This document shows positions 6,995-57,574 of a stretch of DNA of 64,000 bases, piece by piece. The stretch is from Mytilus trossulus (taxonomy: Eukaryota). The translations under genes and the position numbers were made by a program. How positions within the stretch are numbered: position 1 is the stretch's first letter; every line of letters starts with the position of its first letter. The stretch is taken from the NCBI RefSeq assembly GCF_036588685.1, contig NC_086382.1, forward strand, positions 77,128,001 to 77,192,000. The letters run 5' to 3'. The notes under the pieces are model-generated. The model ran no database searches. It was not told where the DNA came from and worked only from the letters and a program-made list of their open reading frames with translations.

Positions 6995-7852
6995 CAGTAC
7001 ATAAGAGTTAGCTTTCCCTTATCTTACAGTGTTCTGGACCTTAATCACCATGTATCACCATACAGCGGATATAGGTACTAACCAAGTGAGCATGATCGAT
7101 TTTGAACTGACACAGTAACGAAAATCTTTGTTTTGTTTTATCAACATTCGGTGAACATTTCTCAACATCTAAAATTCCTGTTCCAAAATAATTTTCGCAT
7201 TGATTTTTTCCTATTCACATGATTTATAAGACAACTTTTATATTCTAATCAGAACAATTAACTTGTAAATGCGCAAATAGTTGTGAATGTCAACACTAAC
7301 TTTCAATTTCAATACAATGGTCGAGACATTTACATGTTGTACCTGAAAGAAAGCTAATAATTTTATTTACTTGTATAGGTAAAAAAAAATTGGCTCAGTT
7401 ATTTCCCTTAGGCATTCAGATTTTTTTTACTTGTATTTATAAGTAAAAAAAATCATCCTTTCTTCTTTTCTTAAATTCTTAAGATTTCTTTGCTCTAAAA
7501 GAATTTTAAACTGTGTACCCTTTACAGATGTCTTAACTTATCATTTAAGTGTAATTTCATGAACAATGAAAATCCCATTTGTCTGTTATCTTCATAACAC
7601 TGCTAATTTACAAGCCCCGATGAAGCAATTTTTGAAGGCCCTGTGCAAATATACAAGATCTTTGCTCAATCAGTTTCTTTGATGAATTAATGCATATGAG
7701 ATTAAACATTGAACATTAAAGAACAAATTTGAGCAAACCTGGGAAAAATCATTAAAGGCATGATTTTACATCTCAAACTTGAGGATTTTTGTGAGATTGT
7801 AAGAAAAATTTATTTATACAAGTAATTTTTTTAGAAAATGAAGGGGAGATTA

Positions 7853-7960
7853 TTCAAAAATTATTTATATTATATAAATAATTTTTGAAAAAAAAATATA
7901 CACATATTTACTAAATATATAATAATTATATATTTAGTAAATATGTGTATATTTTTTTTT
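7853..7960. repeat. Two abutting perfect AT-rich palindromes (37 bp and 73 bp, 1-nt loops)
   Basis: 7853-7889 has 18-bp arms; 7888-7960 has 36-bp arms (AAAAAAAAATATACACATATTTACTAAATATATAAT-a-reverse complement). Confidence 0.95.
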
Positions 7961-9051
7961 ACTTCTTCAAGTAAATAAAATACACTTGTACAAGTAGTAC
8001 CCTTGACTGTCTGTAGCAGGAAGTGTCCCTAGCCTGAATCAATATTTACTTGCCTGGAGCATTAGACTAGTGGCTAACGGTGCAGAATGCTGTGATTACA
8101 CATTCCTTGAAAATTTTAAGGGTAATAAACGAGTATGAAAATTTTGTTTAAGTGTATTGTGTACAGCAACTTAACTTTGCACTGTACTGAAGGATTAATG
8201 TGGCCAGCTAAACACTGTACACAAGGGTTTTTTTTCAGAATAAAATATTAAAAAAAACATATGCATGAAAGATTTCAACGCTAATTATTGATACAACTAT
8301 ACTAAAGTTATTACACACTCACAGTGGCCTTCTATCAGAAAAAGAGTTTTAATGAATATAGAATTATATCAGATGAGATGAATGCCAACTTCTTTGACAA
8401 GTATAATGCACATGTTTTTAGTAATTATTCTTGTTTTGGGAAAATAATGAGACATGTCTAATCATCAACCTACGACCACATCATTTTTTAAAACAACAAT
8501 TATGTTAAGATTGGGGTTTGCAGTTTCAGCAGTCTTAGGGTTTTACAAATAATAAGGACTATATCTGTCCAATACCCCGTTCCAGGATACTGTTTGTTAA
8601 ATCTGTCGTGTGACTGTATCACCACTTGACCAAATGTAGGCATTGTCACTTCCAACACAGGCGTCTCAGAAGAAGAAAAAAATAGCCTTGCCAGAGGTCA
8701 TAACTATTTGGACTAATTTTTGGTGACCAATAGTTTGCATATAACAGTTAATTTCAAAAAATTATCTAATCTATCTCAAACAGTGAAACATGGCAATCCA
8801 ACAACTGTCCAGAGACGCTACACCTGTCTCTGCCTAAAGTTGCAATTAGCCGCACAAAAATTGCAAGCATTGACTTAAAAATAATGCAAATTTCTATAAA
8901 AACAAATTGTTTTCCAACTTGGTCGTGTTACATAAAAATAAACATTTGTTTTTATCAAGTTTAAAACTAGACAAAATTATTCAGTAAATGTCTAAAGATC
9001 AGAAAAATCTTAATTAAACTTTCAAAATTTGTCTGATATATATATTCTTAC

Positions 9052-17927: not shown

Positions 17928-18207
17928 TATATACGAGAGTTGTGTGCCCTTAGAAAGCTAGTCGGTGATTATATCGGTGAGTGAAAAACTGCAAAAAACT
18001 GTGATTTAAAAGCATTTCATCAATTTATTCTTTCATGAATTAGTACAAGTGTCTCTCCGGATTATTAATATCAGCTGAAATATGTAAAATGTGACTCCGA
18101 AAAGACTTTTGATGATTGCATATGTTTTCAATACTTAACAATGATAGTGAAGGTTGAAATGTACTCACATTATATACTGTAGTTTTATATGTACAAAGGT
18201 GTAAATA

Positions 18208-19662
18208 ATGAGTACTTCGTCAAATACGACAGATATAACGGTCAATCATGAAGATATTCAAGGCAATGATGACTTATTTGCAGATGAAATCGAAAATCAA
18301 AATGATATAAATAACATTAATTTAACACAATCAATAACCGATAGTCAATTCAATGATGACGACATGTATAGAATTATCCAGACAAAGTTTGGTCAATTAG
18401 ATAGATATAATTTTAAAAGAGAATTATTACAAAATACTGACACAGATGATTTAAAACCTATCAGAAGCTCCCTTTATGAATTAACAAAGAAAAAGGAACA
18501 TGTAATATTAGAATCTAGACTCATCGAACGCACTCACCGTGAAAACGGACCGTCAATCGAAGAAAAGCTTTCTGATGACATTTACACCTTATTTAACTTT
18601 CTTGAGGGCAATCTCACAAGTAATGAACTGAAACCTTTAATTTCTCGAGGCAGACGGAATACGAATGCACATTTCGATACTGGCGATAACAGTGTACATG
18701 AGGTTTTCAACAAAATGACAAACCGTGAAACAAGCACCCAAGGCAATTCATATATACTTGCAACACTTCTCGAAATCAAACAAAGTTTCAATGAAAAACT
18801 TAAAACATTAAACGATAAAATCGACACAATAAATGAGAAATTCGAGTGTGAGATCAAGCGGCTTGCTAATGTGGTTCATGAAAAAGATAGACAAATGTAT
18901 TTATTAAAAACAGAATTGTATGATGAAAAAGAAAAAGTAACTCGCCTAAGGTCAGAAATCAAACTACAATCTCAAGATTTAAAAGACCAAGAAGATAAGA
19001 TACGCACGAGTGACTAACAAAGACAAAATGTTTTCAATAAAATAGTTAACCGACTAGAATCAATAGATGGTAAATGTAAAACACTTGGAAAAAAATCAAT
19101 GTCTTATAGTGAGGCTTTAAATCGAAGTGCTGATGAAAAAATACATTCACAGACGAAAACCGCTAACTCTGAACTTGATAATCATCAAAGTTTACATTAC
19201 GAAAACAACAGTATAAATAGCGCAAACAGGGATCATGTATATAATCAGGAAAACACAATGACAAAAAACACTTACGTGCATGCATACGCACGACCAAATA
19301 CAGTGGAAAGACCAGTTTCTACAGAACAGATTCAACAAATACAAACTCGAGTCACAAACGGAGATACAAGTGTATTTCGTGGTGTTGTAAGGAAACGTTC
19401 CAGAAGAATCGTACTTTACAATGTAACTGCTGATAAACCTTTCGAACTAGTTGATACTGCAGTTAGAAACTTTGCGTCAAGTAAAGGGGTTAATATAACT
19501 TTTGTAAAACTGCTAATAAAACGACAATACAAAGACATTGCAACATATACTCTTCGTGCTAACATCAACGAGAGGGACTTTGCTGCAGTAGAAAACGATG
19601 ACTTCTTTTGGCCAGAAGGCGTTTACTGGCGAGACTATATCCCACAAAACAAACATCAATAA
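18208..19662 (+). pseudogene. LINE ORF1 (coiled coil plus RRM-like C-terminus), one in-frame stop at 19015-19017
   Basis: ORFs 18208-19017 and 19099-19662 share one frame. Heptad region LKTLNDKIDTINEK; C-terminal RRIVLYNV...FFWPEGVYWRDY is typical of CR1/L2 ORF1. Confidence 0.8.
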
Positions 19663-20672
19663 CATTCATGTTCAATCTGTTATATATTGTATATTTTATT
19701 TTTCTCATGTTGTTACGAATAACAACATGGAATATGAGAGGCGCTATGTATGGCACCTCATATTTCGAAAACTTGCTTAAAGACTCTGATATATGTATTG
19801 TAACAGAGCACTGGTTAAATAGAACTAATATTACATTTTTATATGAGTTAGCAAATGATTTTCGAGTATTTTCATGCTTTAGCTCTAGTTCAGTAAATTC
19901 AAACAGAGGCTCTGGTGGAGTAGCTATTCTTGTAAGGAAAACATTTGGTTTTAAGACTTCTAATTTAATTTTTGATAATGACAGAATTTGTGCTGTCAAA
20001 TTATCCAAGCATGGTTATGAAAGTTTATGTATCATAGGTACTTTACTACCATCAACAAATCATTCAGCTGAAGAGTATTTACAATATTTTCAAACTGTGT
20101 GTAGTATTTATGATAGAATGTCAGTTGATTGTGTAACTGTAATAGGTGGTGATTTTAATACTGATATTGCAGTAACAAGTTTAAGTAGTAAATCAAAAAA
20201 TGTCATAGACTTCATTACAAAAAATAATTTATCTCCTGTTCCATTGATGTCCGGTCGTAAAGGCCCTGATTTTACATTTAGGTCTAAAGATATGACGCGT
20301 AAAACTATGATTGATTATATTTTCATTCCAGAATTCTTTTGTAATGGCTTTACAAATTTAGAAGTCAGAAATGACTGTCCATTTAATGTTTCAGATCATT
20401 ATCCTATTTTGATTTTCTTAGATATGAATTTGCTATGTAATACATCAAATAAATTTCATCTTTATCGTAAAGTTCTAATGTGGTCGAGATGTGATGAATT
20501 GGAGAAGAAATATTATCAAACAGAACTAGACAAATAACTAAATTGTGAAGTTTTACCTTTGAACTCGTGTGAAATAAACGAAAATTACATAGAACATATA
20601 AACTCAAATATTGTAAATGTTGTGCATATCGCTGCAAATTCTTGTATTCCCACTGGAAAATTTAGACACTAT

Positions 20673-21679
20673 TGTAACGTGTTTGGCTTATGAACTATAT
20701 GTTCGTATCCGTTTTCACAGAATCTGAGATACTCCAATATCAATCTTTCAGTTAACTCGAAAACCTAACTACAATTTGGAGGCTTGACTCAAAACTACAC
20801 CACCAACTTTGAAACTTAATAAAGGAATAACACTATTTACACAAACAACTTTGTATCAAAAAGTAGTCTGAAAACTATAACCTCAATTTATCCTTGATCC
20901 TTTCACCGACTCCGAGGTCCCAACTGATTTGACAAACAATTATATTAAATTTAAGAACAAGCTTCAAAACTCCTAGGTTCCTGAAACACCTAGTTCTGAG
21001 ACACCCAGTCTCTAAAACACCTAGTCCTGAAATGACTAGTCTCTGAAGCACCTAGTTCCTGAGACAACTAGTTTTGAAGCACCTAGTCTCCGGAGCACTT
21101 AAGTCACCAGATTATTACAAGCTATCTGTTCGAGGGACTGCGACCATTCCCGAGGGAAATTACAGTTTCGGAACAACGCGGTAGCTTGCAATAATTGTAA
21201 TACCTAGTCTCCGAAGCACCAAAGTCACCAGACTATCACAAACCACCTGTTCGAGGGACTGCGACCATTCCCGAGGGAAATTACAGTATCGGAACAACCC
21301 GGTAGCTTGCAACAATCGTAAAGACTTCAAAAACCGCTTGCTTCAAAACCACGACGCTTTCAACTCAACTAGGTTTACAAACTTCTCAATTCTAACTTCT
21401 TTATTTGCTGGTATTTTCTTCCCGATGTTCAACTATCAACGGCCAATTAATAAATGAGCGAACTTGCACCATGTATCGGTGTCTTTATATACCATGAGCG
21501 CGGACCTCGAAGAGAACACCCTAGCAACAATTAACGCATCTCATAACAACCGAGGATAAAAGGATGATTTGATATGTAGTTTTCGTTAACGTATTGTTCA
21601 AATGGGTAATTAATCATGGATTACAATTCAACGATAAATTACAAATATTATCTTATGCCTAAACTGCATTTTTGTCACA
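20673..21679 (-). repeat. 3' LTR
   Basis: Identical to 24404-25410 apart from two substitutions seen (21430/25161 and 21484/25215). Confidence 0.95.
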
Positions 21680-21830
21680 TTACCCACGCCTCCGATTTCA
21701 TGCGTCCTCGCATGACTTACATACTTTTATTTCCTATTTGTATCAGCACAAAGAATAAGTTTAAAAGGTCCCTAACAAATTTTGCCTCTGCAGCGGCCCC
21801 AAGGAGCCTACTCTTAACGAAATCTGCAGA

Positions 21831-21908
21831 AGGGGTCTTTTACATGCACAGGGCGTGACATGTCCCTGTACATGGGGTCTCGGATTTAACGTCCCCATCC
21901 GACGGACT
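21831..21908 (-). repeat. Nin/Deu SINE-domain-like segment in the LTR element's 3' UTR
   Basis: Reverse complement GTCCGTCGGATGGGGACGTTAAATCCGAGACCCC...GTGCATGTAAAAGACCCC resembles the Nin/Deu central domain as recalled (GTCYTTCGGATGAGACGTTAAACCGAGGTCC...GCACGTTAAAGATCCC). Confidence 0.55.
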
Positions 21909-21996
21909 CTACATAGATATATTTTTTACAACCCAATAGTTACAATGACAATAATATTTTATATAAAAAAAAAACATTGCTATCTGCAATCACTGA

Positions 21997-24213
21997 TTAA
22001 AGTTCAAACAAAGATTGAAATTCTTTCCGAATTGTTTCTGCGACCTCCTTTCTATTTAACATACTTCTAACAGACTTTATATATTTTCTGTACTTCAAAC
22101 ACTCTTTCTGACTTGGAGTCACAATTTTCTCATGTGTGGTCTTGCTTTCGCTAATTCCTTTCAGACACACTTTATCAGACGTCTTAACTTTTGTGTGAAG
22201 CACTTTATCATCATCTTCGTTTTCAGACCTGTCCCTTTCTGAAACGTCTATCATTTTCGTCAACTCTCTGTGATCTGACAACTTTGTCTTTTCACTGTTT
22301 AATAAGCATTCACTCTTGTTCACGTCTTCGTCGTTACAGTACGTGTCTTGCTCCCTTGGTAGCGCAACGATTTTAGTGTCATCATTTCTGTGAAGCCTTT
22401 TCATATGACGTCTGCGATAACTCGACTTTTTAAACGTTTTACTACACTGGTAGCAAGTCAATCCGCTTTTCTCTGAACATTTATTTGTTTTTACATTACC
22501 AACTTCAGTTTTTGGTAGAACAGATTTTCTACTGTTTCTAGACATCAGTTCCCGATTCGTAGGAGATAATTTTACAGTTGTTGCCACATATACCCTGTAG
22601 CAGCCGATCTGACCTTCAAATTGTAAACGGGTCTTTCTTCCGTTTACCCATATGTTACCTTTAGTGATATCGATCACACAACTGTGGCTCCTTTGGAAAT
22701 CTATTCCCAATATGCCATCTATGTTGAGGTCTGCTACTACAGCTATATTCGAATAAACATATCCATTTATATCAATGTCAATAATGGTCTTTCCAAATAC
22801 ATTTAAACGAGAACCGTTGGTAGTCAATATCTCTCTGTCCATTGGTGACAGGACATGCAAACGCATACTGTCAAATAATTTCTTTGAAATTAGAGATACT
22901 GTCGCCCCTGTGTCTACAAGCATCTTTGTTTTACAACCATTGACTTTAGCCTCTATAAACATACCAGCCTCATTTGCTAATTTATTTACTCCTATCACAC
23001 CGTTCTGTTTTTCGAGTGAAACTTCGGGACCGTTTTGGGAGTTTGAGTGTCCTCTTTTCACACTACTTTCGGGACAATCTATTTTAAAATGACCAAATTT
23101 CCCACAATTGAAACATCCCCGATTCTTGAAATGATCCCGGGTCTGCTTTAAAGCTTTAACCCCATCTTGCAAACCAGACAAAGCTGTCTGCATGTTTTTG
23201 AGAAGTTCAATTGTCTTGTCTTTAATGTCACTGGTGTCCCCGTCTTTGGTTATAGCCCTTGAATAGCCCTTCCCATTATCTTGCTTAATTTCTGCCTTAT
23301 TAAAAGCTTCCAGTTCAACAGCGTGTCGAATGGCGTCGTTCAAGTCAGAAGGTCGAGCTTGTTTTATTCTTAGCCTCATGTCTACACTCATTAGTCCGTC
23401 AATAAATTGCTCTTTAGCAAGTGTTTCTTTAACGTCAGTCGGGGCCGTGGGATACGCCAGGTTTGCCAAGCGCCTTACGTCCTGACCAAGTTCAGGAAGA
23501 CTTTCCAAAGCCTTTTGCCGACGCTCCCGTAATTGTGTTCGGTACAATTCCGTTTGATTGGCAGGCGAAAATCTCTCTTCAAGAGATCTGACAAGTTCTT
23601 TAAAATTTTGTCTTTTATCTGTGGGTAGATTTCCTAGTACCCCCTGGGCTTGTCCTCTCAATGAGACTGCCAAATACAAACCCTTTTCTACATCTGTCCA
23701 ACTATTTATATTTGAACATGCATCGAAATGAGACATGTAATCTATCCATGACCACTGGCCATCAAACGTAGCGGGCTTTATAATATTTTTGCTTTTGTTG
23801 TCTCCCCAATATGTATCTAATTTATCTTGTGGTTTTGGCAAATTTTTCTTTAACCTTTCAGTGACAAAATTTGTCTCAAGAACATAATCTGGATTATCTG
23901 TATTACGTATTGCAGGCCGTGGCATAACTTTTGTCTTAGCCCCTACCCCAAAGTGAGTACTTTGGAGTATGTTGCTGCCTGTACCAAAGTCTGGGTCTGG
24001 AATTCTAGCAGAAGCAATTCCAGAGTCAGATTGTCTTGGACGTGTTGCTTGACTAATAGGAGTTGACTGAGCAAAGTCTGGGGTATTTTCAAAACTCTTA
24101 TTTCTTAAGCACTCTATTTCCTTGTTTAATTTATCTAACTCCCTGGTCAAATTTCTTGTTTCGACACTGTAAGGGTTATACAACATTTTATCTTCTCTGA
24201 ATGTTCGGGACAT
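21997..24213 (-). CDS. Gag-aspartyl protease-C2H2 zinc finger polyprotein, 738 aa, intact
   Basis: Capsid-like KPATFDGQWSWIDY...LAVSLRGQAQ; zinc knuckle CFNCGKFGHFKIDC; protease LVDTGAT...ILGIDF; C2H2 finger CYQCSKTFKKSSYRRRHMKRLH. Confidence 0.9.
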   Translation of the reverse strand: MSRTFREDKMLYNPYSVETRNLTRELDKLNKEIECLRNKSFENTPDFAQSTPISQATRPRQSDSGIASARIPDPDFGTGSNILQSTHFGVGAKTKVMPRPAIRNTDNPDYVLETNFVTERLKKNLPKPQDKLDTYWGDNKSKNIIKPATFDGQWSWIDYMSHFDACSNINSWTDVEKGLYLAVSLRGQAQGVLGNLPTDKRQNFKELVRSLEERFSPANQTELYRTQLRERRQKALESLPELGQDVRRLANLAYPTAPTDVKETLAKEQFIDGLMSVDMRLRIKQARPSDLNDAIRHAVELEAFNKAEIKQDNGKGYSRAITKDGDTSDIKDKTIELLKNMQTALSGLQDGVKALKQTRDHFKNRGCFNCGKFGHFKIDCPESSVKRGHSNSQNGPEVSLEKQNGVIGVNKLANEAGMFIEAKVNGCKTKMLVDTGATVSLISKKLFDSMRLHVLSPMDREILTTNGSRLNVFGKTIIDIDINGYVYSNIAVVADLNIDGILGIDFQRSHSCVIDITKGNIWVNGRKTRLQFEGQIGCYRVYVATTVKLSPTNRELMSRNSRKSVLPKTEVGNVKTNKCSEKSGLTCYQCSKTFKKSSYRRRHMKRLHRNDDTKIVALPREQDTYCNDEDVNKSECLLNSEKTKLSDHRELTKMIDVSERDRSENEDDDKVLHTKVKTSDKVCLKGISESKTTHEKIVTPSQKECLKYRKYIKSVRSMLNRKEVAETIRKEFQSLFEL

Positions 24214-24381
24214 ATTTTGAAGAATAAATTAAACAATTAATTTTCCAAATATATTTTATGAAACAATTTGACAATCGATGTATTTACAAAACAGTGTGTT
24301 GCTTCTTGCAATAAAGGACAAATAGGAAATAATGACAATAAAACAATGTGATTATTTATATATAATACTGAAGTTTCTCAG

Positions 24382-24399
24382 ATCCCAACGCTGCCACCA
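24382..24399 (-). promoter_or_regulatory. Primer-binding site, tRNA-Leu type
   Basis: TGGTGGCAGCGTTGGGAT, 4 nt inside the 5' LTR, nearly complementary to the ...ATCCCACCGCTGCCACCA 3' end of eukaryotic tRNA-Leu. Confidence 0.8.
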
Positions 24400-24403
24400 A
24401 TTT

Positions 24404-25410
24404 TGTAACGTGTTTGGCTTATGAACTATATGTTCGTATCCGTTTTCACAGAATCTGAGATACTCCAATATCAATCTTTCAGTTAACTCGAAAACCTAAC
24501 TACAATTTGGAGGCTTGACTCAAAACTACACCACCAACTTTGAAACTTAATAAAGGAATAACACTATTTACACAAACAACTTTGTATCAAAAAGTAGTCT
24601 GAAAACTATAACCTCAATTTATCCTTGATCCTTTCACCGACTCCGAGGTCCCAACTGATTTGACAAACAATTATATTAAATTTAAGAACAAGCTTCAAAA
24701 CTCCTAGGTTCCTGAAACACCTAGTTCTGAGACACCCAGTCTCTAAAACACCTAGTCCTGAAATGACTAGTCTCTGAAGCACCTAGTTCCTGAGACAACT
24801 AGTTTTGAAGCACCTAGTCTCCGGAGCACTTAAGTCACCAGATTATTACAAGCTATCTGTTCGAGGGACTGCGACCATTCCCGAGGGAAATTACAGTTTC
24901 GGAACAACGCGGTAGCTTGCAATAATTGTAATACCTAGTCTCCGAAGCACCAAAGTCACCAGACTATCACAAACCACCTGTTCGAGGGACTGCGACCATT
25001 CCCGAGGGAAATTACAGTATCGGAACAACCCGGTAGCTTGCAACAATCGTAAAGACTTCAAAAACCGCTTGCTTCAAAACCACGACGCTTTCAACTCAAC
25101 TAGGTTTACAAACTTCTCAATTCTAACTTCTTTATTTGCTGGTATTTTCTTCCCGATGTTTAACTATCAACGGCCAATTAATAAATGAGCGAACTTGCAC
25201 CATGTATCGGTGTCGTTATATACCATGAGCGCGGACCTCGAAGAGAACACCCTAGCAACAATTAACGCATCTCATAACAACCGAGGATAAAAGGATGATT
25301 TGATATGTAGTTTTCGTTAACGTATTGTTCAAATGGGTAATTAATCATGGATTACAATTCAACGATAAATTACAAATATTATCTTATGCCTAAACTGCAT
25401 TTTTGTCACA
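24404..25410 (-). repeat. 5' LTR
   Basis: TGTGACA...GTTACA on the minus strand, followed by the PBS. Confidence 0.95.
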
Positions 25411-28400
25411 CTATCTAAAACCGTACTGGAAAAGTAACAGCTTAGATTATTACCATAATAAGCAACGACAAGCTCGTAAAACGTGGCTGTCAATGGGACA
25501 AACACGAAACAACGACAATATTTTTTATAAACAGTATAAAGATCAGAAAAGAGAATTTCGAAAGCATAAACGTAATGCAGAGCGATTGTGGGAATCTGAA
25601 AAATTTGCTGATGTGCAAAAAGCAGCCGAAATGGACATAGGACAATTTTATCGTGTAGTGCGAAAGCATAGACAACAAAAATCGCCAGCAACTTGTTTGA
25701 ACTATGATGGAAATACAGCTACTAATAACGGGGATATTTGCAAGTTGTGGAGTACTTATTTTAGCGATTTGTATACTCCTAATGAACACGAAAATGACAA
25801 TTTTGATCAATCTTTTTATATGGATGTCACAGAAAAAGTTCGTGAATATAGCAGTCAAATTAGCAAACCGTTTAATGCTTTTTTCGATGTGCCCTACACT
25901 GAAGATGAAATATATGAGCAAATTAAAACTTTAAAATGTGGTAAGGCTCCAGGACCGGACTATGTATGCAACGAACATATAATATACGGTGGTAATACCT
26001 TGTTGAAATGGATTTGTTATATTTTTAATATTATACTTAAATGCGAATACATTCCATTACTATATCGACATGGCATAATTATTCCGTTATATAAAGGAAA
26101 TAACAAAGACAAGAGTAATCCGAATAGTTACAGAGCTATTGTCCTAACATCCGTATTTGGAAAATTACATGACAAAACAGTCCTTCATCGAATAAATAAA
26201 ATGCTTACTGCACTTGATAAGACTTTTCCTGATCCTTTACAGTTTGGATTTGTTCCTGAACATGGTTCTATCCCCGCTTTATACACACTCAAAGAATGTA
26301 TTAACGTGTTTATGAAAAGTAAATCTAAACTTTATGTTGGTTTTCTAGATAACGAGAAAGCGTTTGATAAGATCTGGCACGACGGACTTTTTCTGAAATT
26401 GAAAGAAATCGGTGTAACTGGTAAATTATGGAACATACTTTTTATGTCTTACAAATCTGCTAGTGCACATGTGCAATATAATGGACTCACTAGTGACAAT
26501 TTCTCCATTTCGCAGGGTGTAGGGCAAGGGAGAGTACTCTCATCTTGGCTATTCTCCTTATATATAAATGACTTAATATTACAGCTGATTTCGACAAACT
26601 GTGGAATACGAATTGGTTATTTGAACATTCCTGCCATTCTTCTTGCGGACGACACAACCCTTCTTAGTGCTTCGCCAAAAGGTCTACAAGGTCTTCTTGA
26701 CTGTGTACAAACTTATGCTTGTAAATGGAGACTTAAATATAACGGAACAAAAAGTTGTGTCTTGGCTTTTAATAATAATACAGATATTGACATTAAGCTT
26801 GGAAATACAAAAATAGCGTGTAAAACTGATACAATTTATGCTGGTACATTGATAACTAACAATAACAAAACGTTTGAAAGGACAAAAAATGCGACTAAGA
26901 AGTTAAAGAAAAATCTACACTCATTGTATAGTGCTGGAGTTAACCCGAAAGGCCTTACACCGATTACAAACACGTTAATATGGAAGCGTTTTGTTCTGCC
27001 TACAGCATTGTACTCTTGCGAAGTATGGGGACAACTCTCAAATTCTGAAATAGAACTTTTAGAAAGAACACAACGATATGCTGCGCGATATATACAGTGT
27101 ATGGACAAATATTCACCAACGGACTCAACTATAAGCAACCTTGGTTTATGGTCATTGGAAGCTGTAATTGACAAATTCAAACTTTTATTCTTTGGGCGAT
27201 TATGTAGGAGTAAATCTACCACAACTCATAAAAAATTATTCAACATGTGCATTAGTCAATTTATTCTGGATGAAAATGCCGAACACTCTATAACCTATAA
27301 TCTTATTACAACTCTGGTTAAATACGATCTATTTTCTTTCCTTGAAACCTATGTAAATGAGGATTACATACCAGAAAAAGTGTTGTTCGTCAGTCTATTG
27401 AAATTTATGAAGAGAACATATGGAAAAGTAATTTAGAAAATAGAAACGAACTCAAAAGGTATTCCAAAATTCATCCTACCCTCTGTGAACATAGATTAAT
27501 TCGGTTGACAGTTTTATATCCCGATGCAAAACTCGAACTGCTAGTACTTGTGGCTTTAGGATCGGCAGCCATTAAGAAAGCTACATGTACTCTATGTAAC
27601 AAACAATCTTTCGATATCGTTAAACATTTAATAATGGAGTGTCATGTTCTATTGACAGAGAGAAATGTTATGTTTTATAAAATTGTAGATGAACTTCCCA
27701 TTCAAAAATCTGTGGACATTTTCAATTTAGACGACGATGACCTTCTTGAAGTACTACTAGGATCTGTTCATGATATAGTATACGATCTCGATCCTATAGA
27801 TTGGTCTAGAATGATGTATTACATAGCAAAACATGTTTACCCCATGTTTGAGAAATTCAGACATGTATTATTTGAAAACAGATTTAATTTTGAATTTTGA
27901 ATAGACTTTGATTGAAAAACATTGTGTTTTTGTTGTGTATACAAGAATATGTCATTATCTGAATTGTGTGTTTATCTAAATATGGATGTTGGTTTTTTTT
28001 CATTGGGTATTTATCTCGAAATGTATGATATTTTGTTTATTGTGTAAATAATTATTAATTTCTGTTTGTATGCAAAATCTTCATATACATGGAGGAAATA
28101 AAGATTCATTCATTCATTCATTCAATAAACAAAGTAGTCAAAATATGGGTACATCAGTCATCATCGTATAACAATTTTAAAAGGAACAATTTAACAGAAC
28201 ACAAAAACATCTATCTACAAACACATTCATTGATTTGTGTGTCTGAAAATTTTATACGTCACATAGATTTGTCGTTCAATGTGCATACAAACAATTTTAA
28301 AATTTACATAGGCAATGTTAGCATACAGGGTTAAAAAAATCAAAAGTATGTAAGAATAAACAGAAATAGACTGAGATTTAAAAAAGTCCAAAAGTTATAT

Positions 28401-32658: not shown

Positions 32659-35600
32659 TTGGTCCATAAATAAATTCTTGTACCTTATCCCTGTTTGTAG
32701 ATAAAGTGATCAGGATGCTTTCCCCTGAAGAACCAATACCAGCTCTTCCTGTCATCTGTTCATACTGAGTCCTGCTCAGAAATGCATTCCCTACATAGGG
32801 ACTTCGTAAAATTACTCTGTTAGCAGGTAGATTAACACCAGCCGCTAGTGTACTTGTACAGGCCAGTAAATACAGTGTTCACTCTAAGTAAGCATCTTCT
32901 ATCAGTCGTTTCTCGTCCATCGTCAGTCCACTATTCCAAAGTGTACAGGCCAGTAAACACAGTATTCCCTCTGAGTAAGCATCTTCTATCAGTCGTCTCT
33001 CGTCCATCGTCAGTCCACTATGATGATAGGCTATTCCAAAGTGTACAGGCCAGTAAACACCGTGTTCCCTCTGAGTAAGCATCTTCTATCAGTCGCCTCT
33101 AATACTAATCACATTAAATAGTCTGGATCTGTTTTGGTTTGTTCAGAAGAAAATGGAAAAGTCACAACCCGGCTGTGCGATACCAATTCTTTTGCCGTCT
33201 TAAATATTACCTCATAAATGTTGTCCTCTCTCAATTTCCCAGGTCTAAAATCATTATGATAGACATCAGCCTTTAGAAAATTCTGTAAATCTTCAATCTT
33301 GTTCATAGTAGCACTCATTCCTATGATCTGTGTATTACTCTGCGTGTGAATAATTTTCAACAATGTTGATTCTAAAGTAGCACCGCGACTCCCATCTTCC
33401 ACAATCATGTGGAGTTCATCCACAACAACTAATCCTAGAGAATCTAATCTGTTGTTCTCTATCAAGCTGTTAATAAGTGAGTGAGCTTTCTCTATTGTAG
33501 CTATATAAAACGATCGTTTGTTCCGTCTTTTCATTGGAGGAAATCTGCATTTACTGCCTGCATATTCATCGACCAAGAAATCTAATTCTAATGCAAATGT
33601 GGAAATACTTCTAACCTTTTCCTGTACTATTGAAACAAATGGAAGTATAATGAATATAGTAATAGCATCTTTTTGTTGACACAGTATCTGTTTGAGTATC
33701 AGTATCTCAGCTAATAATGTTTTTCCATCACAAGTAGGTAAAGAATAGATTAGATTTATTCCTTCTCTCACACCTGGCAGGTTCAAACATTCATCTTGCC
33801 AAAGTTTTGTAATTCCTCTATGTACTTGTAGAAGTTGCTGAACTTTAGATCGAAGACCATAAAATGGACAAATATCTGTAGTACTTCCTGTAGTTTTCAG
33901 TCTTTCCATTTCTTCCTGGACTTTCTGTAGTTGTTCCTCTGGTTGTTGTTGTATAACTGATCCTGGTCCCTGAGGTGTTTTTACACATGCATTATTATGG
34001 AGTCTCTGTTTGATTCTGTCTCTTAGAGTGCATACAGGTGTAAGAGGAACTGCTTTCTGTTTTAACATGCTATTTATTAATATCTTTTTATATCTGGTTT
34101 TAGTTTCACTTCAGATTTTTCATCATGACCTTCACACCAATTAATGTCCATGTCTGCCAACCGGAAGTCACTGCTGTCAAGGATAATATCTTCTGCTTCA
34201 TCTTCATGATCTTTCCGTTTTTGTTCCTGATTTAAATCTTTAGGCTCCGTAGCTGTATCTGAATTTCTTATCACCTTTCTGATGGCTGACTTTGGTTCAG
34301 GATATACCACGGTACTGTTATCAACTTTGATATGACGATGACTCTGGTCAATAATTATTTTACTATCACACGCTATTTTTGCCAAGTTAGCATCACCGTC
34401 TGGATCAGTAAGATCTTGTGGATTTATAACTGATGATTTTTTTTAATCTAGAGTTGTTTTTGACATGTTGAACATTGTCATACTCATGACTCTTTCTTTC
34501 ATTATTAAAATAATTTGCAAACCATGAAGAATTGTCATTTGGTGATACAGTATCATTAAATTGACAGTTACTTATTTCATAATCACATTTTACATTTGGT
34601 TCACTTTTGAAATATTTACTCTGTCGATTTATTTCATCTTTCAAGTCACTACTACTTTTGCGCCTGGTAATATCAAATCTTCGACATGGTCCCTTTTCCA
34701 CATCAGCTGACATTAAGGTACATACACATACAATAGTGACTTCTTCTGTGTATGCCGACGAGTAATTTCAGTCTTACACCATTGTACACAATTTAAATCT
34801 AGTGCCATTTTCCAAAATAAAACAATCATTCATGAATTCAGAAGTTTTGTAAACAGTTAATTAATAAATTTAAACTCCACCAGCAGTGGCATCGATCATG
34901 TGGTTGTAAATAAACTCATCATAGATTATCAATCTGTACATCAATATTGTCACCAATATTCATAACTGGAGCAGTATATCTGTGTTGGCTGCTTAAAATA
35001 ATATGGCATCCATTATTCTCATATATGCATGCATGTACAAGACTAGCGCTAGTTTATAACACGTTTAATAATTAATGCGTCCTAAGCACTTTTTTGGATT
35101 AACCTTCATCAGGAACAATCAAAGCCAATCATTTGAAATCAGAAGATGTATAAGAACCGAAAATCGTTGAAGAGCTATATGTCAAAAATACTTAAAATAA
35201 ATAGCCAAATTCATCTGAAGCAAATTCATTAAGTTTCGCTCATAAACAGAGCACCATCAATATCCAACTAAATAAGTCCTACCTTTCCTATCAATCTAAA
35301 CTAAATAGTTCTACCCTTATGTTTAGCTGGTGCAATGCTTGTCTCTAAAGCAACTTACTTGATCGAGTGTTTATATTTCCCCCCTGAAATGGCATATTCT
35401 TGCAATTTACCTCAAAAGAAGATGAATTCCAATCCCAGTGTCTTACCAAAAGTTAATTCTACTAACTAATTTGATTTCACGCCTCCATTTTGGGAACTAG
35501 ATGCTCTGCAGGGCACAGCTTAATACAACCGCAGAGGTTTGGGCAAGTATGGACTCAACATTCAAGCTAAATACAACTCTGAATTTGGATTGTGATTAAA

Positions 35601-48825: not shown

Positions 48826-48984
48826 CTAAAACACATTTTAAAATCACACTGTAATGAAACAAACATCTAACTTACTTAGTCATTCTGATGAGAGCTTAAA
48901 CAAACTAATAATACAATGTACAAGTTAGATTTCATATAATTGTTGTCCAACAGTTAAATTTGAAGAAGCCAACAATCGCCCTAT

Positions 48985-50545
48985 CTTTCAGACTTTATCC
49001 AAATATTCAGTGTTTTCTGTTCAGACATTTTTCAAAGCGTTCATTGATTTCTGATCAGACATTATGTGAAACGTTCATTGTTTTCTGTTCAGATATAATC
49101 CAAAGCGTACATTGTTTTCTGTTCAGACATTTTATAAAGTGTTCATTGTTTTCTGTTCAGACATTATCCAAAGCATTCATTGTTTTCTGTTCAGACATTA
49201 TCCAAAGCATTCATTGTTTTCTGTTCAGACATTATCCAAAGTGTTCATTGTTTTCTGTTCAGACATTATCCCCAAAGTGTTCATTGTTTTCTGTTCAGAC
49301 ATTATCCCCAAAGTATTCATTGTTTTCTGTTCAGACATTATCCAAAGTATTTATTGTTTTCTGTTCAGACATTATCCCCAAAGCGTTCATTGTTTTCTGT
49401 TCAGACATTATCCCCAAAGTATTCATTGTTTTCTGTTCAGACATTATCCAAAGTATTCATTGTTTTCTGTTCAGACATTATCCAAAGTGTTCATTGTTTT
49501 CTGTTCAGACATTATCCAAAGTGTTCATTGTTTTCTGTTCAGACATTATCCCCAAAGTATTCATTGTTTTCTGTTCAGACATTATCCAAAGAATTCATTG
49601 TTTTCTGTTCAGACATTATCCCTAAAGCGTTCATTGTTTTCTGTTCAGACATTATCCCCAAAGTATTCATTGTTTTCTGTTCAGACATTATCCAAAGCGT
49701 TCATTGTTTTCTGTTCAGACATTATCCAAAGTATTCATTGTTTTCTGTTCAGACATTATCCAAAGCGTTCATTGTTTTCTGTTCAGACATTATCCAAAGT
49801 GTTCAGTGTTTTCTGTTCAGACATAATCCAAAGCGTTCATTGTTTTCTGTTCAGATATTATCCAAAGTATTCATTGTTTTCTGTTCAGACATTATCCAAA
49901 GCATTCATTGTTTTCTGTTCAGACATTATCCAAAGCGTTCATTGTTTTCTGTTCAGACATAATCCAAAGTGTTCAGTGTTTTCTGTTCAGACATAATCCA
50001 AAGCGTTCATTGTTTTCTGTTCAGACATTTACAAAGTGTTCATAGTTTTCTGTTCAGACATTATCCAAAGTGTTCATTGTTTTCTGTTCAGACATTATCC
50101 CCAAAGTATTCATTGTTTTCTGTTCAGACATTATCCAAAGTATTAATTGTTTTCTGTTCAGACATTATCCCCAAAGCGTTCATTGTTTTCTGTTCAGACA
50201 TTATCCCCAAAGTATTCATTGTTTTCTGTTCAGACATTATCCAAAGTATTCATTGTTTTCTGTTCAGACATTATCCAAAGTGTTCATTGTTTTCTGTTCA
50301 GACATTATCCCCAAAGTGTTCATTGTTTTCTGTTCAGACATTATCCCCAAAGTATTCATTGTTTTCTGTTCAGACATTTTACAAAGTGTTCATTGTTTTC
50401 TGTTCAGACATTATCCAAAGCATTCATTGTTTTCTGTTCAGACATAATCCAAAGCATTCATTGTTTTTTGTTTAGACATTATCCAAAGCATTCATTGTTT
50501 TCTGTTCAGACATTATCCCAAGGTTCATTGTTTTCTGTTCAGACA
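48985..50545. repeat. 34/36-bp satellite, ~45 copies, in RPF2 intron 4
   Basis: Unit TTCATTGTTTTCTGTTCAGACATTATCC(CC)AAAGTG; it explains the repetitive ORFs at 48960-50602. Confidence 0.95.
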
Positions 50546-50997
50546 ATCTTAGTCATTGTTTTCTTGTTAAATCAGAGGTTGTTTTTTACAGTTGCCATGT
50601 GAACTAATGTTTAATTGTTTAATTTACAATTGAACTGGTCAAGTAAGAATCAAGGAAACTAGTTTAACCCAACCACATGTAATGCCTCTGCATAGTTTTG
50701 CTGGTTTTTATTTCTTCAAGGATGAGTTGGTTCTGTTTATTGTGATGTGATATTTTTTTGATACTTTGATGTTATATTTTCTTTCATGAACAGGTGACTG
50801 ATGTCACTATATTTGGTTGGTTCAGTTAAAAATCAATATTTCCAGGCATTTAGTATTTGTGTATCTCCATTTCCCAAAGGAACAGGTCTAATGGTTAGTT
50901 CAGTCTACTTTTGATTGCTTCAATTTTGTTCTAAAATATTAACACCGTTTCCATGATCATATTATTGTTGATTATATTATAACCGTTGATAACTTAC

Positions 50998-54474: not shown

Positions 54475-55855
54475 CTGTATTAAAAAAACATATATGTACA
54501 AATGTAGTGCATTTCAGTAACTGTTAGTAGTCCTTTATTAACTGGTGTATTATTATCATTTCCCTTAGTTTCTTCTGTTACCTATTCTGAAATTGGACTC
54601 AGATTTTTATTAAGCTGAGTTTAACTGTGCATATTGCTTTGCATTTGTTTATTCTGCCTTTGCTAGAAGTAAAGTGGGAGGGTTGAGATCTCACAAAACG
54701 TGTTTAACCCTGCCACATATTAGTTTATTTATATGTTTCTGAGTTAAGTGTCTACTGAAATGTAACTGAACTAGTACAAATTTTGTTTAGGGGCCAGCTG
54801 AAGCCCAACTAGAGTTGTTGGATTTTCTTGATATGTTCAAGACCCATTTTTGGCCATGGGCTCTTTTCTGCTTTTTGGTTGGGTTGTTGTCTCTATGATA
54901 CATTCCCCATTTCCATTTTATATTTTATATTTTATTTACCCAAAAGTTCATTATTTTGTCTTTTATCGTTATCAATGTGAATTACTTAAATATAATATTC
55001 AAGTGATTAATTCAACAATTCAGAAGATTAAAAGTCCAAATATCTACAGAAAACAGAAAGGAAGAGTCTTACAACACCCCACTTTTTGAACTCCGCTGAC
55101 CCTCATGGACACTTCAAATATACTTTTTTCCATTTTTTCTTCTTCTAACTCTTTTATAAAATAGTTGTACCAATAATAAAAGAGAAAAATATCAAAATCT
55201 AACCAATGAACAGATATCCAGGATACTTGAACTGATTACTATAAATTATGAATATATTTGAATTTTATAACACACACAATCATGACAATGTAATCCGGAA
55301 AGTGATGAATCTGCAGACGTTTTTCCTCATATTGATTTTCGATTTTAACATAAAAATGATGCCCATAAAAATTGGAAAATTGTTTCATTATAAGTAATTT
55401 AATTTATTTTATCGTATTATTGTATAATATCATAGTTTTTCTTAGTGGTAGGTGGTATTTGAGGTGTTCGGCGGCGTTCTGTGGTGTGCAGTGGTGTTCG
55501 GTGGTGAAAAGACCCACCCGCTTGTGACCTTAGATTTTGTGTGTGTTTTGTCAAGAAAATGAATGAGTTTATCAAAGTATATATAGGCATGGCAAAGGCG
55601 GAGTTAGAGGGGGCATGTGCCTATCTATCTCTATCTTCATATTTCTGAGTACTAGTAGGCAGTCAATGGGCCCCCACTTATGAAAAATTCTGGATCCGCC
55701 ACTGCATTGTTTTCAGAGATAAGTGTGTGTGATGTATTGTTCAGACACAAATCAAAACAAATAAACCTTTGATATGACTTGATGTATGTGTGAACAGTGT
55801 AAAGGTTAAAACACCTAGTACATGTATTGATAAGTATTCTGTATTTTTCTAAACT

Positions 55856-57574
55856 ATCTGTCTGTATCTGTATCTGTATCGTTACGTCGAAGGTACCAAT
55901 ACTGGCTTTTACTCGACGGGAGAGAGAGCGCCTATTGACCGTGTTGGAGAGCTGTTTTGAAGCTCTCAACTGACTTGGCGCACACTGCTGCTTCTTCCAG
56001 TTGGTTCCAATGAATAACAGTCTTGACAAAGAACGAGTTCTTAAATTGTTCAGTTTTACAGTTTGTAGTATCAATTGCCTTTGAGTTGTTTTTAACTGAG
56101 TTGGTAACTATGTTTGTGCTCTCAAAGTCTACAAAGCGTGTAGGTTTGATTGTCCTTTTGGTTTTGCTTTTTACCAAAAATTCGTCAGGTTTGATAGCTG
56201 GGACCAAACCCTCAACCACTTTGTACAGAAATACCAGTCTTTGGCTTGTTCTTCTGGACTGTAGGTTTTCAAGTTCCAGCACTGTTAGCATTTTGGTGAC
56301 CGATCCCTCTTCTCTTGATTTATAATCCCCTGTGATGAAACGGGCTGCTCTTCTTTGGATTCTTTCTAATTGGTTGATGTTGTTTGATGTATATGGGTCC
56401 CATACAATTGCCCCATATTCCATCGTAGATCGCACCAATGAAATGTATGCTGTTTTCTTGCAGTCTTTTGGGCAGAATCTTAGGTTGCGTCTAAGAAAGC
56501 CTAGTGTAGAATTCGCTTTCTTAGTTACATTTGAAATGTGGGTGGTCCATTTCAGATCGTCCGATATCTGTAGACCCAGGTATGGGTTGTGTTTGACCTG
56601 TTGGAGTATGTGTCCATCAAGGGTATAGAACTTCTGACTTTTGTTCTTAATGCTCAAGATGTAACATTTCTTTGCGTTGAAGCGCATACCCCAGTCTTTG
56701 GCCCATTTTTCTAGGCTAACCAGATCTTGTTTTAACAGTGTGTGGTCTCGTTGAGTTTTTATATTTCTGTATAGCAGACAATCATCAGCAAAAAGTCTAA
56801 CAGTTGATTTTACTGAGTCCGGGAGATCATTGATATGACAGAGGAAGAGAAGGGGTCCGAGTACGGTTCCTTGTGGCACTCCTGAGTCCACTGTAACTTC
56901 TTCCGATTCCTCTCCATCAATGACAACCTTCATCCTTCTCTGAGTTAGAAACATTTCTAGCCATTTATTCAGTGGTCCTCTCACACCATATTCGTCTAGT
57001 TTGTGTAGGAGTTTGTTGTGTGGCACTGTGTCAAATGCTTTTGAAAAGTCCAGGATAGCAACATCAATTTGGTTTCCAGCATCGTGTGATTTCATGAAGT
57101 CGTGCAGTGTGACTAGTAGCTGTGTCTCACACGAGTATCCGGATCTGAATCCATGGTTGAGTGATGTTAGTACCCTGTGCTTGTCTAGATGGTTTAGTAT
57201 GTGCTTACAGATGATATGTTCAAGTACTTTGCACGGCACAGATGTTAGTGATACAGGTCTATAATTTTCTGGTGCATGTTTATCTCCTTTTTTAAAGACG
57301 CTCGAGATGTTAGCCTTTAACCAGTCTCTTGGCAGTTCTCCAGTATTTATTGACTTTTGGTATATTATTGAGAGTCCTGGTGCAAGTTGTTTTGAGCACT
57401 CCTTGAGGATTCTATTAGGTATACCGTCTGGTCCTGAAGCTTTTGATGGGTTTAGTTGCCTGAGTAGTTTTTCGACTCCTTCATGTTTTATTTCAAGGAA
57501 TGGGATTGAGATCTTTATGTGCTTTGTTGTTTTCGGCAATGTTTTGTCGTTGTCCTTTGTAAATACTGATTTTT
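55856..57574 (-). mobile_element. 5'-truncated CR1-group LINE with uninterrupted RT frame, in RPF2 intron 1
   Basis: ORF 55932-57539 has KASGPDGI, NYRPVSLTS, DFSKAFD, GVPQGTVLGP, FADD; (CAGATA)n tail at ~55856-55880. Confidence 0.93.

Follow-up and report, generated by a model that had tools for sequence, protein, structure and literature searches.

The window analysed here is 64,000 nucleotides (nt) of Mytilus trossulus DNA (NCBI RefSeq assembly GCF_036588685.1, contig NC_086382.1, forward-strand positions 77,128,001 to 77,192,000). It contains a Ty3/Gypsy long terminal repeat (LTR) retrotransposon whose single long open reading frame (ORF) encodes Gag and a protease and ends in a C2H2 zinc finger where pol would be expected. 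We propose, with a probability of about 0.85, that the element is a recent copy of an old pol-less family (family A) that supplies its own capsid, borrows reverse transcriptase (RT), RNase H and integrase, and gained its finger by an in-frame deletion from ORF2, an accessory gene of its lineage. One deletion, from just past the protease to a point between the two ORF2 fingers, would have founded the family. Family-A Gag would co-assemble with the Gag-Pol of a helper, and the missing enzymes would be borrowed from this co-packaged autonomous relative. In a weaker step of the proposal, the protease may free the finger, which may retain part of the ORF2 function, probably binding of nucleic acid inside the particle or the nucleus. 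The system would be an example from animals of a satellite retrotransposon that encodes only Gag and protease, is under selection, and has both a traceable origin and a likely helper; it also brings to light a twin-finger accessory gene behind pol from which the same fusion appears to have arisen several times.

The element has the paired TG..CA LTRs, the primer-binding site (PBS) and the short target-site duplication (TSD) of Ty3/Gypsy elements and lacks the RT, RNase H and integrase of its own that an autonomous Gypsy element carries (Table 1). The original prediction, made from the letters alone, of 1007-bp LTRs with two differences was reproduced, the mismatches lying at 21430 and 21484, and the CTAT duplication that it named is present on both flanks. 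Within the 3' LTR, 121 bp are duplicated in tandem (21074-21321), and repeats of 15-16 bp follow one another at 20981-21103. The intact 738-aa frame with a finger behind the protease was also recovered; in this frame Pfam recognized zf-CCHC and an aspartyl protease (E 2e-11), with Retrotrans_gag (E 4e-4) and zf-C2H2 (E 0.028) below the cut-off. Pfam assigned no RT, RNase H or integrase family to the ORF, and a tblastn search with the RT-RNase H-integrase region of an autonomous element found no match in the element and did match the positive control, in agreement with the predicted lack of these enzymes. As for the priming sites that had been predicted, the PBS stood, pairing with the tRNA-Leu(AAG) of the searched genome with a single mismatch, but a plain polypurine tract (PPT) did not: its position holds a copy of the primer tRNA. 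A search of the element against Rfam gave zero matches at E<=1, and the stretch was not found in any sequencing run recorded as RNA.

The architecture is not a one-off, because it belongs to a multi-copy family. Searching a 1.3-Gb genome (G000; L-numbers denote loci in G000 or in external collections) with the protease-finger junction DNA gave 16 matches at 14 loci, and the 13 loci besides this element were fetched for comparison. By tblastn, RT, RNase H and integrase were found at none of the 14 family-A loci and at none of five loci of a sister family (family B), with L036 as the positive control. Exact 4-bp TSDs at different sites flank seven of the 14 loci, and one further locus has three of the four bases; the LTR pairs of the TSD-bearing copies are 98.8-100% identical. 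The frame is open to the same end at seven loci, the remaining loci being cut, tandem or decayed, and all 19 further LTR matches that were fetched are solo or truncated LTRs that no internal region follows. Among named proteins the closest homologues come from Mytilus: those of M. edulis, M. coruscus and M. galloprovincialis carry the same Gag-protease-finger fusion at 60-77% identity. The oldest family-A copies have LTR segments 78-91% alike and the same short internal region, suggesting that the pol-less form has been mobile over a long time. The description 'very young' therefore holds for this copy but not for its family. A single in-frame deletion after insertion, which had been offered as the alternative, is refuted by the dispersed copies: the same architecture stands at 14 loci with different flanks and in three named Mytilus species, nothing was found in favour of such an event, and we give it almost no weight. 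A junction unique to this locus, with full pol in the other copies, was likewise not observed. Two family-A loci (L021/L022) form a head-to-tail tandem with a common LTR, and two old copies with the same flanks (L029, L030) represent one insertion held twice.

The capsid and protease of this family are under purifying selection, with ratios of nonsynonymous to synonymous substitution (dN/dS) of 0.10-0.17 and 0.13-0.32, respectively, in four pairs of diverged family-A copies. A pol-less family with Gag and protease under selection would need a helper, and the inference of a self-encapsidating satellite, put forward with the original prediction, is supported by these results. Fifteen of about 16 distinct indels among six long family-A frames are multiples of three, a count biased by the selection of frames for their length. 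Over its 32 codons, the finger gave a dN/dS of 0.17 (confidence interval 0.06-0.51) in one pair and is identical in the fourth pair. We consider support for a working finger to be modest.

Other pol-less elements were recorded in G000. One family (L044-L050, L067), derived from the L040 family, has paired LTRs and a 717-aa frame in which Gag-protease is in frame with the start of integrase. In a third pol-less type (L051, L052, L062, L063), 91% identical to autonomous L061 and provided with an ordinary purine tract, Gag-protease is in frame with the last ~100 aa of integrase. L056 and L069 are 4.6-kb elements with identical LTRs and a Gag-only frame of 434 aa.

The finger is best explained as a remnant of ORF2. 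Eight of the fetched pol-bearing loci in G000 have a separate twin-finger ORF2 of 230-290 aa behind gag-pol, which fits the earlier expectation that autonomous partners would carry the finger in an ORF of its own at the 3' end. From its start motif, ORF2 runs through a C2HC and then a C2H2 finger, followed by an acidic stretch and a basic motif, to a conserved end; it is absent in other pol-bearing relatives (L035, L037, L040, L042, L057, L058, L061). When a 30-sequence set was scored with an ORF2 profile, family A gave E 6.8e-8 with the finger and E 0.016 without it. In family B, Gag-protease is joined to the second finger and the ORF2 end motif is retained (E 3e-13, or 5e-7 without the finger), and the pol remnant of both families ends near the same motif ~50 aa past the protease. 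In six database proteins Gag-protease is joined to ORF2 at other points, with the ORF2 start kept in four. In 75 external loci from metagenome and genome collections, ORF2 was found in nine, and in five of these nine (L131, L136, L137, L139, L190) it continues in frame from integrase without a stop, suggesting that the finger is the natural tail of a polyprotein. Gag-protease::ORF2 fusions appear to have arisen several times: a quick Gag-protease tree of 75 rows, from which 10 rows had been removed because of their short coverage and which did not include 67 database rows without a label, forces at least five changes of the fused label, although recombination could inflate such a count of origins, and a single clade for families A and B was rejected (p-AU 0.0007, approximately unbiased test). 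A query of the ESM Atlas with ORF2 returned generic C2H2 clusters only, and no integrase relative was found in the viral contigs searched. A more distant Gypsy element, L055, in which gag and pol occupy separate frames, also has an ORF with a C2H2 finger after pol (7345-8328, oriented).

Several observations weigh against the proposal of an ORF2-derived, selected satellite or against parts of it. No autonomous element of the same family was found among the best 40 of 410 LTR candidates and the best 105 of 1543 Gag-protease candidates scored in G000; the closest pol-bearing elements among those scored are 46-50% identical in Gag-protease, and with no such parent the junction is not mappable to the base. 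Family-A copies are mosaic, as template switching between co-packaged RNAs would give, so that some of the low dN/dS values could stem from segments of an unseen autonomous donor. In two of the pairs the finger gave 0.36 and 0.48, values whose intervals include 1, and the linkers stand at about 0.5-1. The family-A tail beyond the finger shows weak homology to ORF2 (E 0.004-0.11), and the database fusion proteins come without genomic context and may in some cases be gene-prediction joins. Only the second ORF2 finger remains in family A, and the L044 and L051 types, which fuse Gag-protease to integrase scraps, suggest that an open frame may matter more than the finger.

These last points lead to a reading in which finger and tail are translatable filler: selection would only maintain an open frame up to the RNA end, for example against nonsense-mediated decay, and the finger would be a decaying passenger. 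The near-neutral linkers nevertheless stay in frame, pol-less families other than A terminate in integrase scraps, the first finger and the C-terminal ORF2 motif are gone from family A, and the young copy L026 and protein P0010 drop the last ~40 aa by a change of frame, all as filler would have it. A mere filler is harder to reconcile with the retention of all four zinc ligands in eight aligned family-A frames and in the named Mytilus homologues, and with the dN/dS of 0.17 in the sole pair whose interval excludes 1. Likewise, ORF2 fusions recur on several branches and the second finger is always kept, although the finger was itself a scoring criterion for fusions. We regard filler as a serious possibility, at odds distinctly below even. 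The origin of the fusion can also be pictured without a DNA deletion, by splicing of an autonomous genomic RNA from a donor past the protease to an acceptor in ORF2, followed by reverse transcription. In autonomous copies a pyrimidine-rich stretch ending in AG precedes the ORF2 start and resembles an env-type acceptor, and the break past the protease is at almost the same place in families A and B. However, junctions vary among lineages, P0056, P0063 and P0070 retain sequence upstream of the ORF2 start that splicing would remove, family B variants differ by additional small in-frame losses, and a close parent for a test of GT-AG ends was not found. Splicing thus seems improbable to us, and we retain the in-frame deletion as the likely founding event of family A.

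The tRNA-Leu PBS, the last 9 nt of the LTR and the 3' module are common to family A and to autonomous families, whose LTR pairs are 98-100% identical. Since several autonomous families share the PBS and LTR ends, these features do not single out the helper; the autonomous partner that had been predicted was thus recovered in its LTR ends and PBS but not as an element of the same family. Within the 3' untranslated region (UTR), young family-A copies share a 161-bp block at 92-96% identity with the autonomous elements L041, L053 and L060, whose Gag-protease is only ~49% identical to theirs; old family-A copies and family B have a different downstream half of the block. Because the young copies carry the version of the L041/L053/L060 family and the older ones another, we suggest, at about even odds, that this family is the likely helper and that the block was swapped in a shared particle. 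The domain order in L041 is CCHC, PR, RVT_1, RT_RNaseH, Integrase_H2C2, rve and p58_C.

By eye and unscored, the first ~75 nt of this block resemble published rows of MetaSINEs, a group of short interspersed elements (SINEs) with a 66-bp central Meta-domain, namely BivaMD-SINE1 (PMC4824008 supplement) and Tgr_1 (PMC4758252 supplement). In contrast to a MetaSINE, the block lacks head and tail and is carried in Gypsy 3' UTRs: of its 25 best genomic matches, 24 are embedded in LTR elements of this clade, where they precede its 3' module, and are thus not free SINEs. A tRNA-headed SINE-like copy with the same body (71%) is located beside L044, and the block was not found in the 75 external loci. 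The MetaSINE literature, as far as its available text extends, does not mention a Meta-domain in LTR elements, and the reason for the conservation of SINE central domains is called unknown in the accessible part of PMC5786205; a MetaSINE-like block kept in Gypsy 3' UTRs bears on that question. A V-SINE domain was rejected as the identity of the block, as Vhc-type SINE sequences lack it and Meta-domain rows match instead. With a pseudoknot-plus-hairpin model 90% of cells were paired, and the two double-change pairs were no more than in shuffles (289/500), so that a structure of the block is suggested rather than shown. Eleven G000 loci (L112-L114, L116, L118, L120-L122, L124-L126) have an L060-type 3' end with the MetaSINE-like block, the preceding 1.5 kb contains no ORF of >=80 aa, and they are possibly a non-coding satellite family.

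At the position of the PPT, 2 nt before the TG of the LTR, the element has 14 nt identical in the same sense to nt 50-63 of tRNA-Leu(AAG) (variable arm and 5' strand of the T-stem). This part of the tRNA lies just upstream of the 3' 18 nt that pair with the PBS, and the match ends at what we take to be T54 in standard tRNA numbering. Five of the 14 nt are pyrimidines, and purines make up nine of the 11 bases that precede the final T. The 14 nt are unchanged in family B, and the match covers 11-12 nt in the autonomous families of G000; in L039 one changed base brings the match down to 7 nt. In tests picked after the match had been noticed, shuffled upstream 26-mers reached these match lengths in 0-1 of 5000 trials, and one of 3900 random internal 26-mers had a match of >=11 nt. 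Seven of the 75 external loci have the site as runs of 10-17 nt, up to 17/18 identical (L131); each run stops at the same T, with two bases and then TG behind it. Many external loci are too short to reach the site, their LTR starts come without second-copy confirmation, and matches were scored without the hosts' own tRNAs. In four of these seven sites a single change inside the match is a wobble in the tRNA:minus-DNA pair. The hairpin upstream of the site is found throughout the clade, with a compensatory change in the L051/L061 lineage. L051, L061, L139, L145 and L147 have the same PBS and hairpin with an ordinary purine tract, which makes the tRNA-identical site and the purine tract alternatives at one position. 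With RNA parameters as a proxy, the tRNA pairs with the minus copy at -24 to -39 kcal/mol, and its free 5' portion pairs with the plus-sense site at -10 to -18 kcal/mol; these energies favour the minus copy but also allow the plus site.

A conservative explanation of the site, to which we give a little less than an even chance, is that template switching captured a tRNA fragment on a single occasion and that this fragment now serves as an atypical purine-rich PPT of the genomic RNA. The purine content of the last 11 bases and the ordinary purine tracts of the relatives just named are in line with it, and PPTs have no common consensus and tolerate pyrimidines (available text of PMC3185511). A mere PPT, however, is expected to drift toward purines, and here the pyrimidines that match the tRNA are still present in lineages whose proteins are about 50-65% apart; in several separate lineages the match also reaches further upstream (13-17 nt). 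We put forward more tentatively that the primer tRNA-Leu may prime both strands. In this clade the PPT would have been replaced by a copy of the variable arm and the 5' strand of the T-stem; with the 3' 18 nt of the tRNA on the PBS, the freed arm would anneal to the new minus-strand DNA next to U3. The tRNA would be cut at T54 by RNase H, or the primer would be the leftover of a 22-nt 3' fragment, and the plus strand would start 2 nt before the LTR. A pol-less satellite would retain the module since the RT of its helper must be used, and the lineage would repeatedly spawn Gag-protease::finger satellites from its twin-finger accessory gene. If priming by the tRNA on both strands is true, plus-strand priming of LTR elements is not always on genomic RNA, contrary to the textbook rule. 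Yet another function, a second, Ty3-like tRNA-binding site at which genomic RNA invades the variable stem of the tRNA, appears unlikely. In its favour, pairing of the plus-sense site with the free 5' portion of the tRNA is feasible, and the primer sites of Ty3 and Drosophila gypsy are bipartite, with another tRNA-related motif close to the 3' genome end (PMC1635307, in the text available). Their motifs, though, are complementary to the tRNA, whereas this one is identical, down to loop and 5'-strand bases that invasion does not need (17/18 in L131), and occupies precisely the place of the PPT. The wobble changes in the four external sites and the stronger pairing of the minus copy also speak against a site of this kind.

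The tRNA-Leu(AAG) gene occurs in arrays in G000, with long tandem arrays of a 1.29-kb unit on C2 at ~47.07-47.18 Mb and 103.66-103.71 Mb (L090-L101). On the other strand of these arrays ARAGORN also calls 'tRNA-SeC'. The genome has 240 pattern matches, and a pattern search for other tRNA-Leu variants gave the same gene only, among the 100 of 558 matches listed. The PBS of 20 of 39 G000 elements has a 1-2-nt insertion or change near base 4-8 that is common to several separate insertions of a family; such variants should be erased by standard tRNA copying. A distant relative with a shorter PBS (L192:6628-6648) shows, immediately in front of its 3' LTR, a 9-nt identity to nt 2-10 of tRNA-Leu, which may be due to chance, as ~0.5% of random 26-mers reach 9.

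A Gag-protease-only core is already known from plants. RLG_Sabrina_SA and RLG_WHAM of wheat and barley, called 'semi-autonomous' Gypsy elements in the part of PMC9744471 available, are whole long-lived families with Gag-protease only, without RT and integrase, and have little beyond the PBS and LTR tips in common with the proposed helper. They differ in being plant families of thousands of copies with no in-frame accessory finger reported there, whereas family A is from an animal, has at least 14 loci, carries the ORF2 fusion and shows a recombination trace toward a helper. Family A resembles a semi-autonomous family in having pol at 0/14 loci, an intact Gag-protease frame under selection, and a PBS and LTR termini common with autonomous families active at the same time. 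The TR-GAG and GAG/PROT-only families described from sugar beet (PMC13570524, available text) also keep Gag or Gag-protease, have lost pol and often have an untraceable parent; these plant elements often retain patchy domain remnants, whereas purifying selection acts on the family-A frame, which has an accessory-gene module at its end. The Gypsy domain order of the autonomous relatives, the TG..CA ends and the 4-bp TSD also occur in mollusc Gypsy clades (C-clade/Mag, MolGy), and the main text of that survey, as available, does not contain 'zinc finger', 'additional ORF', 'non-autonomous' or 'PBS' (PMC6238403). Troyka elements, in the accessible text of PMC12440569, have CG..CG termini, a 3-bp TSD and a CX2CX8-10HX4C knuckle; membership of the present element was rejected on its TG..CA ends, 4-bp TSD and CX2CX4HX4C knuckle. 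Helenus differs in having tRNA sequence inside the LTRs as a promoter and a normal PPT (PMC10886601, available part). The available text of PMC8220671, PMC2774666, PMC11952523 and PMC6887750 has nothing on ORF2 or a tRNA-identical site. Across the titles and beginnings of abstracts covered, a scope outside which Repbase and most subscription journals fall, we found no published description of ORF2, of the fusion or its recurrence, or of a tRNA-identical PPT.

Table 1. Features of the element and its insertion site, in positions of the window
Feature	Position	Strand	Basis or remark
Element, whole	20673-25410	minus	paired LTRs and TSD
Left TSD, CTAT	20669-20672		flank comparison
Right TSD, CTAT	25411-25414		flank comparison
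3' LTR, 1007 bp	20673-21679	minus	LTR pair comparison
5' LTR, 1007 bp	24404-25410	minus	LTR pair comparison
PBS for tRNA-Leu(AAG), 18 nt	24382-24399	minus	one mismatch in this copy
Single ORF, 738 aa	21997-24213	minus	Gag, CCHC, protease, short pol remnant, ORF2-derived finger and tail
Capsid core (aa 146-312)	23278-23778	minus	dN/dS 0.10-0.17 among diverged copies
CCHC zinc knuckle (nucleocapsid), CX2CX4HX4C	23074-23115	minus	Pfam
Aspartic protease (aa 420-524)	22642-22956	minus	catalytic DTG motif within 22903-22920
ORF2-derived part (about aa 576-738, border approximate): finger, acidic linker, eroded tail	22000-22488	minus	ORF2 profile
C2H2 finger (aa 587-608)	22390-22455	minus	matches second finger of ORF2
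161-bp 3' UTR block, MetaSINE body-like	21749-21909	minus	by eye against published rows
Hairpin, 7-bp stem, 4-nt loop	21698-21715	minus	just upstream of tRNA-identical site; kept across clade
Predicted plus-strand priming position (PPT position), 14 nt	21682-21695	minus	same-sense identity to tRNA-Leu(AAG) nt 50-63
Host long interspersed nuclear element (LINE), endonuclease part	19602-20672	plus	in-frame stop 20535-20537
Host LINE, RT part	25411-27436	plus	ORF and Pfam

The element is nested in a LINE, with the endonuclease part on its left and the RT part on its right. Upstream of the LINE endonuclease, two open frames on the plus strand (18205-19659) are probably the LINE ORF1 in two pieces. 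Elsewhere in the window, a 333-aa open frame is located at 33112-34110 on the minus strand, a tandem-repeat array at 48900-50600 yields several repetitive open frames, and a second LINE-like RT frame of 546 aa is present at 55655-57572 on the minus strand.

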